Shown here one piece after another: positions 600-60,574 of a stretch of 64,000 nucleotides of DNA (positions within the stretch are counted from its first letter, which is position 1; each line of letters opens with the position of its first letter). The DNA lies in contig CAYGJY010000002.1 of assembly GCA_964350645.1 (NCBI GenBank), forward strand, positions 97,538 through 161,537, in the 5' to 3' direction. The DNA is from an uncultured Candidatus Saccharibacteria bacterium (GTDB lineage Bacteria > Patescibacteriota > Minisyncoccia > Phycocordibacterales > UBA918). The notes beneath the pieces are model-generated. The model did not search any database. It was not told where the DNA came from and saw only the letters and a program-made list of their open reading frames with translations. Both the position numbers and the translations under genes were made by a program.

Positions 600-795
600 T
601 GATCTTTGAGAGCTCCAGAGGATAATTCTCTAAGCAAGCTTTCCGCATAGAAAGTGAATGATACGCTAAGGAAATGCTACAGTGCTCTCACTCTAGGGTG
701 AGTACCACAACACCCTCGCAACATCACTCAGGTTGCTTAGAGAATTATCGTCTGGAGTGACACCAAAAAATTGGCACCGATACGGTGCTTTTTGG
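600..795 (+). ncRNA. Candidate structured small RNA (6S-like architecture), about 195 nt
   Basis: An extended -10 promoter (tgcTACACT, 585..593) lies upstream. A 23 nt segment at 611..633 (ccagaggataattctctaagcaa) is complementary, with one mismatch, to 734..756 (ttgcttagagaattatcgtctgg), enclosing about 100 nt. It ends with the hairpin gcaccg-ata-cggtgc plus ttttt at 773..793. No ORF of 60 aa or more covers it on the plus strand. Confidence 0.35.
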
Positions 796-1029: not shown

Positions 1030-2016
1030 ATGAGCGACACCTCTAAAAAAATCACCAAAGATCACGCTAGTAACCTTGACCAGACTCTCCGCCCCCAGAG
1101 CTGGGAGGAGTATGTCGGTCAGTCTAAGACTAAGGAAAACCTGCGGATTCTTTTAACTGCCGCGCGCGAGCGAGGGCACGCCGCTGAACACGTTCTTTTA
1201 TATGGGCCGCCTGGTTTAGGCAAAACCACACTGGCTCATTTGATCTCAAAAACCCTGGGGACCAACATGAAAACGACTTCCGGTCCGGCGATTGAACGCG
1301 TTGGCGACCTCGCTGCTATTCTCACCAACCTCTCTCCTGGGGATGTGCTGTTTATTGATGAGATTCATCGTCTCAGTAAAAGTATCGAAGAAGTCCTCTA
1401 TCCCGCCATGGAGTCGGGGGTGTTAGATATTATTATTGGTAAAGGCCCGTCAGCGCGCACCGTGCAACTTGAGTTGCCACCGTTTACCTTGGTAGCTGCT
1501 ACCACCCGGATTTCACTTTTATCTTCACCACTGCGTTCTCGTTTTTCCGGTGGAACCTTTCGCTTGGAGTTTTATTCGGAACCGGAAATCGCCCAAATCT
1601 TACAGCGCTCAGCCGGACTGCTCGACATGGCAATTGACGACTCAGTCTTGCATGACATTGCGTCGCGCTGCCGCGCGACGCCACGCACCGCCAACTACCT
1701 CCTCAAGCGCTGTCGTGATATGGCCCAACTCGAAAAAGATTCGCTTACCAAAGATGTCGTGCAACGCACCTTTGCTCTCTTAGAGATCGACACTCTTGGT
1801 CTGACTGCTCCCGACCGCGCCGTCCTTAAAGCTATTATTGGCAAGTTCAACGGCGGACCAGTTGGTTTAAATACTATCGCGGCCGCAACCGGCGAAGAGC
1901 AATCCACCATTGAAGACGTCATCGAGCCCTACCTCATCCGCCAAGGCCTCCTCGAACGCACCCCGCGGGGTCGGGTTGCTTCGGCTGACGCCTACTCACA
2001 TATTCAAAGTCTTTAA
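1030..2016 (+). CDS. ruvB: Holliday junction branch-migration helicase RuvB
   Basis: 328 aa; Walker [18 protein letters not shown], typical RuvB C-terminal winged-helix region. Confidence 0.95.
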
Positions 2017-2747
2017 TCCTCAGTCTGCTCCCACACTAGTTCCAAGAGGGTTCTCATTCCCTGAGCTACTTTTTCACTTTCAATTGACAACGCCATAGTC
2101 TCATCAGTTAATGACGTTATCAATGTAGTGCTGCCGATCACCTCTACATTGATCGGTATTTTTACTCCAGACAAAACTTTGGTGTGACGTCTATCACCAG
2201 CGTCTTTCTCTAGCCATTTTTTATTTCCAGGAGAATCTGTTAAGAGCACCCGCGCTTGCAGACCTTTACGTTCTCGTTTTTTAATATAAGCAGTGAGCCA
2301 CTCATCACCAAGCTTATCTGCAGTAGCGAGATCTGCAGTCCCAAGCGTATCTTCTTCGGCTGTCTTCAGTGCCGCCTCATACAACGACTGAATAGCCGGT
2401 AATGAATCTGCATAGGCCACTAGTGGTTTACCCGGAGATTGGGATGCCAATTTTTGCAATTCGGGAAAGGAATGTTCCAAGGCTGCTTCGCGTTCATTTT
2501 CGATCACTTTCAATTGATTGGGGTGAGCAAACACAAATCGTCGTTTCTTTCCCTTCAACGTCTCCTTTACTAATCCAAACTCAGTAAGCTCATCGAGTAC
2601 AGTGTATACGGTTGTGCGTTTAATCTTAGTTTTAATCGCCAACGCCTGCACAGAAGCAGTACCAAACTCTAATCCAGCCAAATACAACTCAGCTGCTTTA
2701 TCTGAAAGACCCAATTTTATGAGCATTTTTTGTAACTCCATTCCCAA
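2013..2747 (-). CDS. TrmB/MarR-like winged-helix transcriptional regulator
   Basis: 244 aa; N-terminal HTH ([49 protein letters not shown]) resembling TrmB-family sugar regulators. Its stop overlaps the ruvB stop by 4 bp. Confidence 0.5.
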
Positions 2748-2915
2748 ACTATAGCAAAATGCTCTAAAATGTCGACACTTTTGACAAAATAATCTACACC
2801 ATACTATCCTTGTTTTTAAATATATTTTTTATATAAATTAAAAAATGGACGTATTTTTCGACAAAAATTTAAATGTCTTTACTATTAAGATCAGAGTTCT
2901 ATAACAACCTAGCTA

Positions 2916-3362
2916 ATGGAGGCTGCGATGACACGAATCGAAACCTGTGAAGAACGGAATGCGCGTGTAGGAAAAGAGGAGCAGCTGTCATGTCTGACAT
3001 TCGCTTTTACTTTTCTTGCGTCAGCATCATATGCCGTAGCAGTTTGGCAAGTCTATATACCGTACAACCAGGAGATCGCTTCAGCTCTTGATATTGATAG
3101 CGGGAATGAACTTTCTCTTGTCTCTTTAGTATTTGTGGGAATTATTGGGCTATATGGCATAGGCTTTTTTTCCGCTGCGTACGTTGGTGGCTGGTTTTAT
3201 ATAAACAAAATTTTGTTCCTGGCTATTGTGATTATTGCTGGTGCACTGGCTTTCCCTGCAGCAGCAATAACCGTAGCTGGGATTTTGGGTGCCCTGCTTG
3301 CAGCCCTGCTATTTGGCATTTTCCAGGCGGTATGTTGCATCAAAAACTGGTTCTGTGAGTAA
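2916..3362 (+). CDS. Small hydrophobic membrane protein (hypothetical)
   Basis: 148 aa with about 4 predicted TM helices. The likely true start is the ATG at 2928, preceded by aatGGAGG. Terminator hairpin at 3375..3410. Confidence 0.5.
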   Translation: MEAAMTRIETCEERNARVGKEEQLSCLTFAFTFLASASYAVAVWQVYIPYNQEIASALDIDSGNELSLVSLVFVGIIGLYGIGFFSAAYVGGWFYINKILFLAIVIIAGALAFPAAAITVAGILGALLAALLFGIFQAVCCIKNWFCE

Positions 3363-3374
3363 CATCAGTGCTGG

Positions 3375-3410
3375 GGCAGCACCATGGTGCTGCCCTTTTC
3401 TTTTTTTACA
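3375..3410 (+). terminator. Rho-independent terminator
   Basis: gggcagcacc-atg-gtgctgccc followed by ttttcttttttt. Confidence 0.65.
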
Positions 3411-3596
3411 TGAAGTGGCGATGCTCTATCAACTATGTCAGCACACAATAAGTGGGGCGAAGTTAAACACAAAAAACCCTCCTCCGACGCAATGCGCCGG
3501 GGAGAATTTTAGATACCGACTTGAATATGCAAAGTCTCTAATATTTAAAATAATTAAAGCCCGCGGGGAAGTTTGTGATCACGCTGGATCACTCTC

Positions 3597-3652
3597 CTTC
3601 TCCGCGGGGTCGCGTTGCCAGCGCCGACGCCTACTCACACATACAGAAACTA
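3597..3652 (+). pseudogene. Orphan 3'-end fragment of a ruvB homolog (encodes ...[17 protein letters not shown]), GC-rich
   Basis: Directly after an in-frame TAA, the frame reads [33 protein letters not shown]. The last 16 residues match the native RuvB C-terminus ([18 protein letters not shown]) at 15/16, with almost exclusively synonymous, GC-raising third-position differences. It sits 1.6 kb downstream of the intact ruvB. Confidence 0.6.
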
Positions 3653-3699
3653 TAAATAAATGATGCCCGGCGCGAACAGGTCGCGCCGGACAGGTCCGG

Positions 3700-3880
3700 T
3701 CAGAGACGGGACGAACGGATCTGGGGCACCGGCTCCCCGGTGACCAGATCGCGACCGGTGTTGATGGTGACGGTTCCGTCGTCGTTGAACTTCTTGATCG
3801 GCCCTTGCGCTGAAGCGTGATCTCCCGCCAGGGGTATCGTCGCATACTGCTGCTGGTCCGGTTTGATTGGCTCAGTCATC
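3700..3880 (-). CDS. Small GC-rich ORF (59 aa, hypothetical) inside the GC-rich patch
   Basis: Minus-strand ATG with upstream gggagaagaag RBS. Translation: MTEPIKPDQQQYATIPLAGDHASAQGPIKKFNDDGTVTINTGRDLVTGEPVPQIRSSRL. GC3-rich codons. Below the 60 aa ORF-track cutoff. Confidence 0.35.
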
Positions 3881-3951
3881 TTCTTCTCCCTAGCTTGCCT
3901 CTATGGCACAATTAGTTAATACTATTCTGACTAATAAATCAATGGAAAACT

Positions 3952-4491
3952 ATGTCTGGACATAATAAATGGAGTAAAATTAAGCACAAAAAGGCGGCCA
4001 CTGACGCGCAGAAGAGTAAGATTTTCAGCAAGCACGCCTCACTGATCGCCATGGAATCCCGCAAGGCCAACGGGGATGTGAACTCTCCCGGGCTAGCGGC
4101 GGCGATTGATCGGGCGAAGAAAGACTCGATGCCAAAAGATAATATTGATCGGGCGGTGACGAAAGGGAGCGGCGCCTCCGGCGCCGCTCTCGAAGAAGTT
4201 ATGTACGAAGGCTATGGTCCTGGTGGCGTGGCGATGTTGATCGAAGCAGTGACCGATAACAACAACCGCACAGCTCCAGAAATCCGCCACATCTTTACTA
4301 AAGCCGGCCTGGAGCTGGGTACGCCCGGCTCTGCTGCGTGGGCCTTTTCTAAAACTGCCGATGGCTACGTCCCACAAAATCCAATGGAACTTGATGACGC
4401 CACGGGTGAGAAACTGGCTGACTTGATTGAAAAACTTGAAGAAAGTGAGGACGTGACCAACGTCTACACCGCCGCTGACACTCCTGAGTAA
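3952..4491 (+). CDS. yebC: YebC/PmpR-family transcriptional regulator (short form, 179 aa)
   Basis: N-terminus MSGHNKWSKIKHKKAATDAQKSKIFSK and ...YEGYGPGGVAMLIEAVTDNNNRTAPEIRHIFTKAGLELGTPGS match YebC, but the protein is about 60-70 aa shorter than canonical YebC (middle domain missing). Confidence 0.75.
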   Translation: MSGHNKWSKIKHKKAATDAQKSKIFSKHASLIAMESRKANGDVNSPGLAAAIDRAKKDSMPKDNIDRAVTKGSGASGAALEEVMYEGYGPGGVAMLIEAVTDNNNRTAPEIRHIFTKAGLELGTPGSAAWAFSKTADGYVPQNPMELDDATGEKLADLIEKLEESEDVTNVYTAADTPE

Positions 4492-5122: not shown

Positions 5123-5395
5123 ATGATCTTTTTTGCACACCTTCGGGACGATGACGAAGAACTTGAAGAAACTGAGGACACAGATGCCAGTCTTGATGAC
5201 GCTGTATTAGAGGAACTAGGTACTGATGACGATGAAGATGACACAACAGAAACAGAAGGCTTCGGACTAATTGATGAAACTGGTGAGGAAGAGGAAGAAG
5301 AAGAAAAAGATGACGAGGAAGATGAAGACGCTGCCCTTGAAGACGATGCTGAGGATGTCGACTACGATACCTTTGATGACATTGATGAAATGTAA
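5123..5395 (+). CDS. Extremely acidic small protein (about 55% D/E), hypothetical
   Basis: 90 aa, e.g. DDDEELEETEDTDASLDDAVLEELGTDDDEDDTTETEGFGLIDETGEEEEEEEKDDEEDEDAALEDDAEDVDYDTFDDIDEM. No clear RBS (possibly leaderless). Followed by a strong terminator. Confidence 0.4.
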   Translation: MIFFAHLRDDDEELEETEDTDASLDDAVLEELGTDDDEDDTTETEGFGLIDETGEEEEEEEKDDEEDEDAALEDDAEDVDYDTFDDIDEM

Positions 5396-58707: not shown

Positions 58708-58828
58708 GGGTTGAGATTAGTTTTAGTAGTTATCGGCACAGTACAGTTTATTTGTTAGTTTGCCAGGTACAGTGTGAACAAAAGATGACGCCAACCTTAG
58801 AAGGTTGGCGTCATCTTTTGTATGAATG

Positions 58829-58899
58829 TCGGGGAGCCGGGAATCGAACCCGGACCACACGGTCCCAAACCGCGTACACTACCACTATGCTACACCCCG
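58829..58899 (-). tRNA. tRNA-Pro (anticodon TGG)
   Basis: Manual fold on the minus strand: acceptor CGGGGTG/CTCCCCG (one T-T mismatch), D-arm GCAT/GTGT (two G-U), anticodon stem CGCGG/CCGTG with loop TTTGGGA, T-arm CCGGG-TTCGATT-CCCGG. Confidence 0.6.
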
Positions 58900-58986: not shown

Positions 58987-59217
58987 GGTGCAAGTGAAGC
59001 TTGCGGCAGACCGTGACCGAACAACGAGAGGGTGCAAGCTTCGCTTACAGCCGTCAACCTAACTTAATTAGGTAATTGAATGTGAATCCAATTTCGCGTG
59101 CCAAATAATACCATAGCAGTATAAAATTGCGAGTCTATCTATTGTGTTATGTAAAAGTAATGGTATTGTTCGTTCGACGCTCAGAGTGGGCGTTGAACAA
59201 CGATTAGGAGACTAACT

Positions 59218-59637
59218 ATGAATTACCGAGGTTTTAACTTCACCACCGACGGCGAGAATCCGGCGGTGGTCCCCAACAGCGAGGCGGCCGCCTCGCAGTT
59301 GGGCTACAGCGGTGTAGAGGAGGTCTGCATCGCGGGTATCACCATCACCGTCGGAGACGGTGAATCGACCTGGTTCGAGAAAGTCGGGGATGGCAAGTAT
59401 CGCTCTGCAGTCTTCGTCGAGGCAATGCTAGCCTACCGCGGACATTCGCGTGGGTTAATGTCCAAGATCGTCGTCGACGAAGTCTTCATGTTGGCCCTTC
59501 GGGGCTACATGGGCGAACGAGTCTGGGCAGAAGCCACGGACTCGAATGGCGAAAAGCACGGCTTTATCCGCGCGCTTCTGCGCGGGCAGGGTAAGGACGT
59601 CACCATCGACGTTACTTGGAAGAAACCGGCCGCGTAG
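59218..59637 (+). CDS. Hypothetical protein (139 aa) in the GC-rich (about 60%) island
   Basis: Strong RBS tAGGAGactaact-ATG. GC3-rich codon usage unlike the surrounding genes. No recognisable motif. Confidence 0.5.
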   Translation: MNYRGFNFTTDGENPAVVPNSEAAASQLGYSGVEEVCIAGITITVGDGESTWFEKVGDGKYRSAVFVEAMLAYRGHSRGLMSKIVVDEVFMLALRGYMGERVWAEATDSNGEKHGFIRALLRGQGKDVTIDVTWKKPAA

Positions 59638-59679
59638 CGGCCAGCAACCGCCCTGAATAGGGCAGAGAGGAAGGTCATC

Positions 59680-60516
59680 ATGGCCGATAAACAACGTGCG
59701 GCTCTGGAAGCCGCCATCGAAGCTGCATGGGAAGCCCGCGATACGATCACCCCCGCCACAAGGGGCGATCAGCGCGACGCCATCGAGGCAACGCTGGAGG
59801 CGCTGGACAAGGGCGCGCTGCGTGTCGCGGAACGTCAGGCGGACGGCACATGGCATGTGAACCAGTGGGCCAAGAAGGCCGTTCTGCTGGGGTTCCGGAT
59901 CAAGGACATGGAAATGCAGTCCGGCGGCCCGCAGGGCGGCGGCTGGTGGGACAAGGTCGACAGCAAGTTTGCCGGATGGGGCGATGCGCAGTGGAAATCC
60001 GCCGGGTTCCGTGCCGTTCCCAACTGCATCGTGCGCAAGTCCGCCTATATCGCCAAGGGCGTGGTTCTGATGCCGTCTTTCGTCAATCTCGGCGCCCATG
60101 TCGGCGAGGGGACGATGGTCGACACCTGGGCCACGGTCGGGTCTTGCGCGCAGATCGGCAAGAATGTGCATCTGTCCGGCGGTGTCGGCATCGGCGGGGT
60201 GCTGGAGCCGATGCAGGCCGGGCCGACGATCATCGAGGACAACTGTTTCATCGGTGCGCGGTCCGAGGTTGTCGAAGGCTGCATCGTGCGCGAGGGATCG
60301 GTGCTCGGCATGGGCGTCTATATCGGCCAGTCCACCAAGATCGTTGACCGGGAAACCGGCAAATTCACTTATGGCGAGGTGCCCGCCGGGTCTGTCGTCG
60401 TGTCCGGCTCACTGCCGTCCAAGAACGGTGTGAACCTTTATTGCGCGGTGATCGTGAAGCGGGTGGATGCGCAGACCCGGTCGAAAACTTCGATCAACGA
60501 GCTACTGCGCGACTGA
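59680..60516 (+). CDS. dapD: 2,3,4,5-tetrahydropyridine-2,6-dicarboxylate N-succinyltransferase, alphaproteobacterial type
   Basis: 278 aa; about 65% GC. N-terminus [21 protein letters not shown]...[23 protein letters not shown]... and hexapeptide-repeat left-handed beta-helix region. Strongly resembles Rhodobacterales-type DapD. Confidence 0.8.
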
Positions 60517-60574
60517 GCGCAGGAGCGGTGGCCGAGCGATAGCGAGGCCACCCATGTTCTTCCGTTCTTTGGAG

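Follow-up and report, generated by a model that had tools for sequence, protein, structure and literature searches.

The stretch of DNA analysed here, referred to as the window, comprises 64,000 nucleotides with a mean GC content of 45.6% and belongs to a genome of the Patescibacteria (CPR). It carries an intact ruvB gene on the plus strand (1030..2016), identified from the list of open reading frames and by Pfam, that encodes 328 aa and whose closest homologues are 82–99% identical. The gene converges with that of a TrmB-family regulator on the minus strand (2013..2747, Pfam PF01978), the stop codons of the two overlapping by 4 nt. Next to the regulator lies an orphan open reading frame for a membrane protein of 148 aa (2916..3362, plus strand), followed on the same strand by an intrinsic terminator that folding predicts as a hairpin with a U-tract (3373..3406). 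The membrane-protein frame has no family match in Pfam, PHROGs or NCBIfam and no DNA relative among 167 other fetched loci. At the right-hand end of the locus, the yebC promoter and leader (3894..3951, plus strand), whose CTTGCC...TTAGTTAATACT layout is common to the window and the sister strain L083, precede an intact yebC (3952..4491, plus strand) that was recognised from the list of reading frames and by Pfam and NCBIfam as a short form of 179 aa. YebC proteins of this clade have 176–180 aa as compared with model lengths of about 240; both Pfam domains match, and the score stays below the NCBIfam cut-offs. Exact-sequence look-ups of the TrmB protein and of YebC returned nothing and thus added no further alleles.

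Between the terminator of the membrane-protein gene and yebC, the first-pass annotation had reported an additional 3′ end of ruvB, and this is borne out by the comparison of the sequences. The remnant (3599..3655, plus strand, stop codon at 3653–3655) is the third ruvB remnant listed along the locus, and its positions 3602–3655 agree with the native copy of the repeated terminus (1963..2016, plus strand, delimited by sequence comparison) in 17 of 18 codons including the stop. The frame that holds it does open directly after a stop codon, as had been described (TAA at 3551–3553, open from 3554). The copy had also been called synonymously diverged, which is correct: 42 of the 54 bases match (78%), 9 of the 12 base differences fall on third codon positions, the sole residue change relative to the native end is from S to K, and when the native ruvB tail was mutated at random, at least 17 residues were kept in 0 of 20,000 trials. 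The longest exact runs between the two copies measure 11 nt (CCGCGGGGTCG) and 14 nt (GACGCCTACTCACA). In a blastn search of a 571-nt query against the window, the best 44 nt of the repeat aligned with 82% identity (E = 1.4e-6), and the repeat also appeared, with E = 1.6e-4, in a search of the window against itself that, over all 64 kb, returned no more than a handful of dispersed direct repeats. That the remnant otherwise differs only synonymously indicates that it diverged under purifying selection and that it was, until recently, the working ruvB end of another lineage. As the first-pass annotation had noted, the two ruvB ends bracket the TrmB-family gene and the small membrane-protein gene; the genes neighbouring the bracketed segment are pilB, yebC and ruvC.

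Besides this copy, the same interval contains two further gene remnants and a terminator remnant that had been missed in the first reading. A partly decayed 5′ remnant of yebC (MSAHNKWGEVKHKKPSSDAMRRGEF, 25 codons and then a stop; 3435..3512, plus strand) matches the start of the intact yebC at 3952 with 80% identity over 45 nt (blastn, E = 1.7e-5) and in 13 of 25 residues (tblastn). It is recognised by the YebC profile (E = 1.6e-7), was also picked up by the repeat search as repeat family D3 and, although heavily diverged, has in a decay test preserved a larger number of residues than expected from random change (P = 1.5e-4). A longer, frame-shifted version of this stub reaching as far as the residues KARGEV (3557–3574) was considered and rejected, the YebC profile supporting residues 1–25 only. 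The yebC remnant is followed by a second, decayed 3′ remnant of ruvB, DTDLNMQSL and stop, which represents the last 10 codons including the stop codon (3512..3541, plus strand) and matches the native end in 22 of 30 nt. Its changes fit neutral decay. The repeat search had independently found the ruvB end as the three-copy repeat family D2. All three fragments, the flagged ruvB copy, this decayed one and that of yebC, are scars without function.

Directly downstream of the decayed ruvB stub, and in the register expected from L083, lies what remains of the intrinsic terminator of ruvB (T_A, about 3553..3609, plus strand), identified by homology to L083 and by folding. Positions 3536–3608 of the window share 88% identity with the stretch downstream of ruvB in L083 (L083 3277–3347), where a hairpin of -39.8 kcal/mol and the subsequent UUUUCUUUUC make up a standard intrinsic terminator. 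The window has kept the hairpin (-36.9 kcal/mol), but where the U-tract would follow, it has the ruvB codons of the flagged fragment. The homology to L083 ends at 3608 and the homology to ruvB starts at 3602, so that the two meet in a microhomology of CCGCGGG(G) (3602..3609, plus strand) that is common to the 3′ arm of the terminator and to the Pro-Arg-Gly codons of ruvB. Two further copies of the octamer lie at 1963–1970 and 3561–3568. Read along the plus strand, the locus therefore has the order ruvB, TrmB (minus strand), membrane-protein frame, terminator, yebC 5′ stub, ruvB stub, terminator remnant, flagged ruvB stub, hairpin, orf59 (minus strand) and yebC. In all, three ruvB termini and two yebC starts are found at the locus, in the permuted order of a yebC 5′ end followed by a ruvB 3′ end.

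The flagged copy lies in a GC-rich patch whose GC content was given as 63% in the first reading; it amounts to 59.8% over 3555–3890 and reaches about 61% at most in windows of 200 nt. The convergent, GC3-rich frame of 59 aa reported within the patch is real. This frame, orf59 (3700..3879, minus strand), has a GC content of 0.62/0.47/0.73 by codon position and a GGGAG ribosome-binding site, and a GC-rich hairpin found by folding and as the inverted repeat I14 (3664..3692, minus strand) is its predicted terminator. The patch is thus composite, with the terminator remnant and a ruvB tail whose composition is ordinary lying next to orf59 and its terminator, and it owes its high GC content to the two GC-rich hairpins and the foreign-looking orf59. 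A word-indexed protein search with orf59 matched only orf59 itself, and an exhaustive search yielded a single credible homologue, namely P0129, a hypothetical protein of 99 aa from Paracoccus pacificus (50% identical over 48 aa). Four other matches of the exhaustive search (a PPR protein, a cadherin-like protein, a tandem-repeat protein and P0127) were regarded as summed weak repeat matches and set aside. When P0129 was itself used as the query, the search recovered no other protein, an exact look-up of it returned nothing, and the search of viral contigs found no relative of orf59. To judge from its sequence, orf59 appears to be a small, foreign-looking cassette gene that was acquired. The possibility that the patch is a structured RNA or a piece of a phage was dropped after the Rfam and viral-contig searches: at gathering scores, Rfam recognised only three tRNAs in the whole window, none of them in the patch, and at E values of up to 10 it gave only chance-level matches over 3300–4000.

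Comparison with the sister strain L083 reveals how the locus differs between close relatives. The window and L083 show 3 mismatches in positions 1–1679 and then 61 in the following 337 nt; correspondingly, the first 650 nt of ruvB are 100% identical and the remainder is 82% identical. The 3′ segment of ruvB (1680..2016, plus strand) is hence recombinant, being 18% diverged from L083 with nearly all differences at third codon positions, and a homologous-recombination breakpoint lies inside ruvB at about 1680. Given this sharp change of identity within the gene, the two strains differ by an allele swap with its left crossover in ruvB. On the right flank, homology to L083 resumes at 3906 with 97.7% identity. 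The spacer of L083 contains neither the TrmB gene nor the membrane-protein gene and instead holds an intact terminator and an unrelated reading frame on the minus strand, orf66. The latter (L083 3368–3568, minus strand) encodes 66 aa at 58% GC, has a strong AAGGAGG site and no family match, and sits exactly where orf59 does, equally far from the yebC promoter.

The same variability is seen throughout the close family, defined here by RuvB identities of 87–99% (L083, L084, L085, L086, L168 and L169), in that the spacer content differs in every genome. In L084 the spacer holds TrmB (minus strand) and a different membrane-protein frame, in L085 orf123 (plus strand) and in L086 orf63 (minus strand), a large insert in L168 encodes a methyltransferase and TrmB, and the spacer of L169 measures only 31 nt; the ruvB end is duplicated neither in L084 nor in L168. 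No mutual similarity was found among orf59, orf66, orf63 and orf123. The TrmB orthologues are 71% identical in L084, which has the same 4-nt overlap of stop codons, and 64% identical in L168, and in view of these identities TrmB is an old neighbour of ruvB and no recent arrival. A gene of L084 called as 231 aa (L084 2108–2803) contains in-frame TGA and TAA stops under genetic code 11, which points either to a mis-call or to the use of another genetic code in calling it. Among the relatives in which both genes were located, the gap between ruvB and yebC ranges from -4 to 4458 nt; it is below about 30 nt in 17 of 39 (including L003, L004, L005, L013–L015, L017 and L018 as well as L169) and 76 to 4458 nt in the remaining ones. 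Tight linkage of ruvB and yebC is the ancestral state, and in this CPR lineage the spacer between them is a hypervariable slot. A metagenome scan with RuvB gave at least 3 relatives above 80% identity among the matches listed. The comparison of orthologous loci proposed in the first-pass annotation, where a shared gene order with a fragment of host-like GC would have spoken for an ancient arrangement, found no genome of the close family that repeats the order of the window, the spacers there all being different. With the exception of a weak candidate in L086, ruvB or yebC stubs are absent from the spacers of 22 other relatives, and scarring is thus rare and not a rule among them.

The candidate in L086, a strain whose RuvB is 92% identical, is a possible decayed yebC 5′ stub (MRGGNRWRGFSQKKDAVRSTLPSFF and stop; L086 1883–1957) located 82 nt upstream of the intact yebC. 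Its identity of 38 out of 75 nt was equalled by 6 of 1000 shuffles, and it stops at codon 25, as the yebC stub of the window does. If this stub is real, the junction between yebC and ruvB remnants may be old or recurrent.

From the observed anatomy, the breakpoint, the microhomology at the joint and the variability of the slot we infer a route of uptake, an order of events and a set of donors. The explanation we consider likely is a head-to-tail stacking of three alleles of the spacer through two illegitimate joins, combined with homologous exchange in the flanks. Strains would ordinarily swap the contents of the slot by homologous recombination in ruvB and yebC. In the window, a first module (M1) would consist of the ruvB 3′ end, TrmB, the membrane-protein frame, its terminator and the first 25 codons of yebC, a second (M2) of the last 10 codons of ruvB and the ruvB terminator without its U-tract, and a third (M3) of the final 19 ruvB codons, orf59 with its terminator, and the intact yebC with its promoter. 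The join of M2 and M3 falls within the GC-rich microhomology of 7–8 nt, CCGCGGG(G) at 3602–3609, and that of M1 and M2 (about 3510–3512) has at most 2–3 nt of possible overlap and no clear microhomology. DNA of a related strain would have been taken up, anchored at one end by homology in ruvB or yebC and joined illegitimately at the other. M3 probably arrived last, anchored on the yebC side, since its ruvB stub has not yet decayed, and the junction of the yebC stub with the decayed ruvB stub would be older than the arrival of the orf59 module, an order and direction of events that are read from the decay state of very short stubs (10–25 codons). The scars and the breakpoint at 1680 need not stem from one event, since the latter could have arisen in an ordinary allelic replacement at a later time. 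The first-pass suggestion of a recombination scar left by a higher-GC relative is in essence retained as far as the scar is concerned and abandoned for the donor, which need not have a higher GC content because the composition of the ruvB tail of the flagged stub is normal for a ruvB gene. Donor alleles with a single module, i.e., M3 alone or M1 with a diverged yebC start, were not recovered among the loci compared. Stacking predicts that an allele with M3 alone would read ruvB ending in HIQKL and stop, 8 nt, the hairpin GCCCGGCGCGAACAGGTCGCGCCGG, orf59 and yebC, and that one with M1 alone would read membrane-protein frame, its terminator and a yebC starting with MSAHNKWGEV.

A precedent for such joins is homology-facilitated illegitimate recombination (HFIR) in transformable bacteria, in which one homologous anchor and a microhomology of 3–10 bp serve to join foreign DNA (PMC6382021, citing de Vries & Wackernagel, 2002; Prudhomme, 2002; Meier & Wackernagel, 2003). 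HFIR products in Acinetobacter baylyi, Streptococcus pneumoniae and Pseudomonas stutzeri have their crossover in a conserved flanking gene, as is seen here in ruvB at about 1680, and the 7–8-nt GC-rich joint of the window falls into the reported 3–10 bp range (PMC6382021). They also share with the window that non-homologous DNA has been brought in between, which for the window is read from the sequence. In contrast to HFIR, the joins in the window duplicate gene ends instead of deleting recipient DNA, and one of the two junctions lacks clear microhomology. With regard to natural transformation, only the gene of a pilB-like ATPase was seen, at the start of the window.

Flexible genomic islands and islets of the replacement type are hypervariable loci between core genes whose contents are swapped by recombination in the flanks. 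The locus resembles them in its strain-specific, unrelated content, in the breakpoint within a flanking gene and in the occurrence of its alleles in sequencing runs with adjacent accession numbers. It differs from them in that the slot is very small (a few hundred bases to about 2 kb) and holds mostly single orphan frames, and in that its alleles have been stacked and not cleanly replaced, which has left legible scars.

Three other explanations have to be weighed against stacking. Phage e14 and phage 21 integrate at the 3′ end of a protein-coding gene, icd, and carry a substitute for the end they displace. The first-pass annotation had proposed an integration of this type, with attL/attR-like repeats, in which a site-specific element carrying TrmB and the membrane-protein gene would have entered the 3′ end of ruvB and supplied a replacement terminus. 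In its favour, the direct repeat of the ruvB 3′ end shows the mostly synonymous differences known from icd, contains exact runs of 11 and 14 nt, brackets 1.6 kb and places a displaced pseudo-end downstream of the inserted DNA, and the sister strain L083 is without the segment. We nevertheless give this explanation next to no chance. Pfam, PHROGs and NCBIfam detect no integrase, recombinase or excisionase in the bracketed segment and no signs of mobile elements or defence systems, the sole match among the TrmB-like protein, the 148-aa membrane protein and orf59 being the TrmB winged helix. Furthermore, L083 does not offer a clean empty site, as its ruvB 3′ end is 18% diverged and followed by its own terminator and orf66. 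The cargo of 1.6 kb consists of ordinary neighbourhood genes, with TrmB being a long-standing neighbour of ruvB in L084 and L168, both of which lack the duplicated ruvB end. The supposed element would also have to include a terminator remnant as well as a stub of the downstream gene yebC and a further ruvB stub, two stubs that an att model does not predict and that set the locus apart from icd, and a phage origin is unsupported by the viral-contig and PHROGs searches.

An intrachromosomal tandem duplication that spans the ruvB 3′ end, the spacer and the yebC 5′ start and is followed by allele replacement is less easily dismissed, although it too is unlikely. The illegitimate joins themselves would then have formed without foreign DNA, and the resulting anatomy would be the same as that expected from stacking. 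Such a duplication creates exactly a junction of a yebC 5′ end with a ruvB 3′ end, and the population clearly does replace ruvB 3′ ends by homologous recombination. However, the contents of the modules and the three ruvB ends are unrelated or strongly diverged, the two separate junctions would require two duplications, and the flagged stub with its synonymous-only changes needs at least one import from another lineage in any case. The remaining alternative, also raised in the first-pass annotation, is that the assembler concatenated co-occurring strain variants of the locus. Both types of allele are indeed found in runs with adjacent accession numbers (L083 is from ERR3534978, the allele of the window from ERR3534981 and ERR3534985), and the ends of one of the matching contigs at 1935 and 3941 would fit a branching of the assembly graph where strains share k-mers. 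On the other hand, two Logan contigs, L001 (ERR3534981) and L002 (ERR3534985), are 100% identical to the window, so that three assemblies agree, and L002 spans 1935–3941 and crosses both junctions. With the junctions reproduced in independent assemblies from different runs, an artefact is unlikely, and a microhomology of 7–8 nt and repeats of 73–82% identity would probably offer too little for a mistaken joining in the graph; the chance we leave to it is very small.

Stacking of spacer alleles, the explanation we favour, describes an event of an ordinary and known kind and no new system, in an unusually legible form and in a lineage where little of it has been documented. It would mean that the change of a core-gene spacer in a CPR genome is recorded here at base level, with swaps through the flanks, occasional stacking and dead gene ends left behind. 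For annotation it implies that the stubs should be treated as pseudogene fragments and not as the att site of a mobile element. The locus would furthermore mark strain-level recombination within the population and lend a little support to the view that organisms of this kind gain DNA without the help of integrases.

A more far-reaching and rather improbable proposal is that the interval between ruvB and yebC is a preferred capture site, at which a naturally competent CPR bacterium would repeatedly take in small cassettes by a homologous anchor and microhomology. These cassettes would include genes from outside the CPR, possibly of host or neighbour origin, for which the resemblance of orf59 to a protein of the alphaproteobacterium Paracoccus pacificus could be an example; another patch rich in GC (about 65%), which carries dapD, is situated at 59.2–60.5 kb. 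If this were true, the scars would be a direct trace of gene gain by an episymbiotic CPR organism without mobile-element machinery.

Several observations were made elsewhere in the window. Downstream of ruvC, an extremely acidic frame of 90 aa (5123–5395, plus strand) belongs to no Pfam family; a gene of 88–90 aa is called at its position in L083–L086 and L169, and a similar protein is encoded in L004. In the 525-nt spacer between pilB and ruvB, positions 613–762 (plus strand) form a candidate structured RNA of about 150 nt without a match in Rfam. Relatives match it at 70–83% identity, as compared with only about 75% for their ruvB DNA. Its consensus fold (n=7) contains 42 pairs and has a closing stem of 26 bp and three hairpins, with CCUCGCAAC as a conserved unpaired stretch; 95.6% of the cells are paired, and compensatory changes are found at 16 pairs as compared with 1–4 in slid controls, a level of covariation reached in 0 of 500 shuffles. 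Invariant G-U pairs point to the plus strand. A second patch of about 65% GC (59200–60520) adjoins a tRNA-Pro gene (58828–58899, minus strand) and encodes a complete DapD, which scores above the cut-off of NCBIfam TIGR00965, together with an orphan frame of 139 aa; by its composition, this dapD patch looks foreign for a CPR genome of 45.6% GC.
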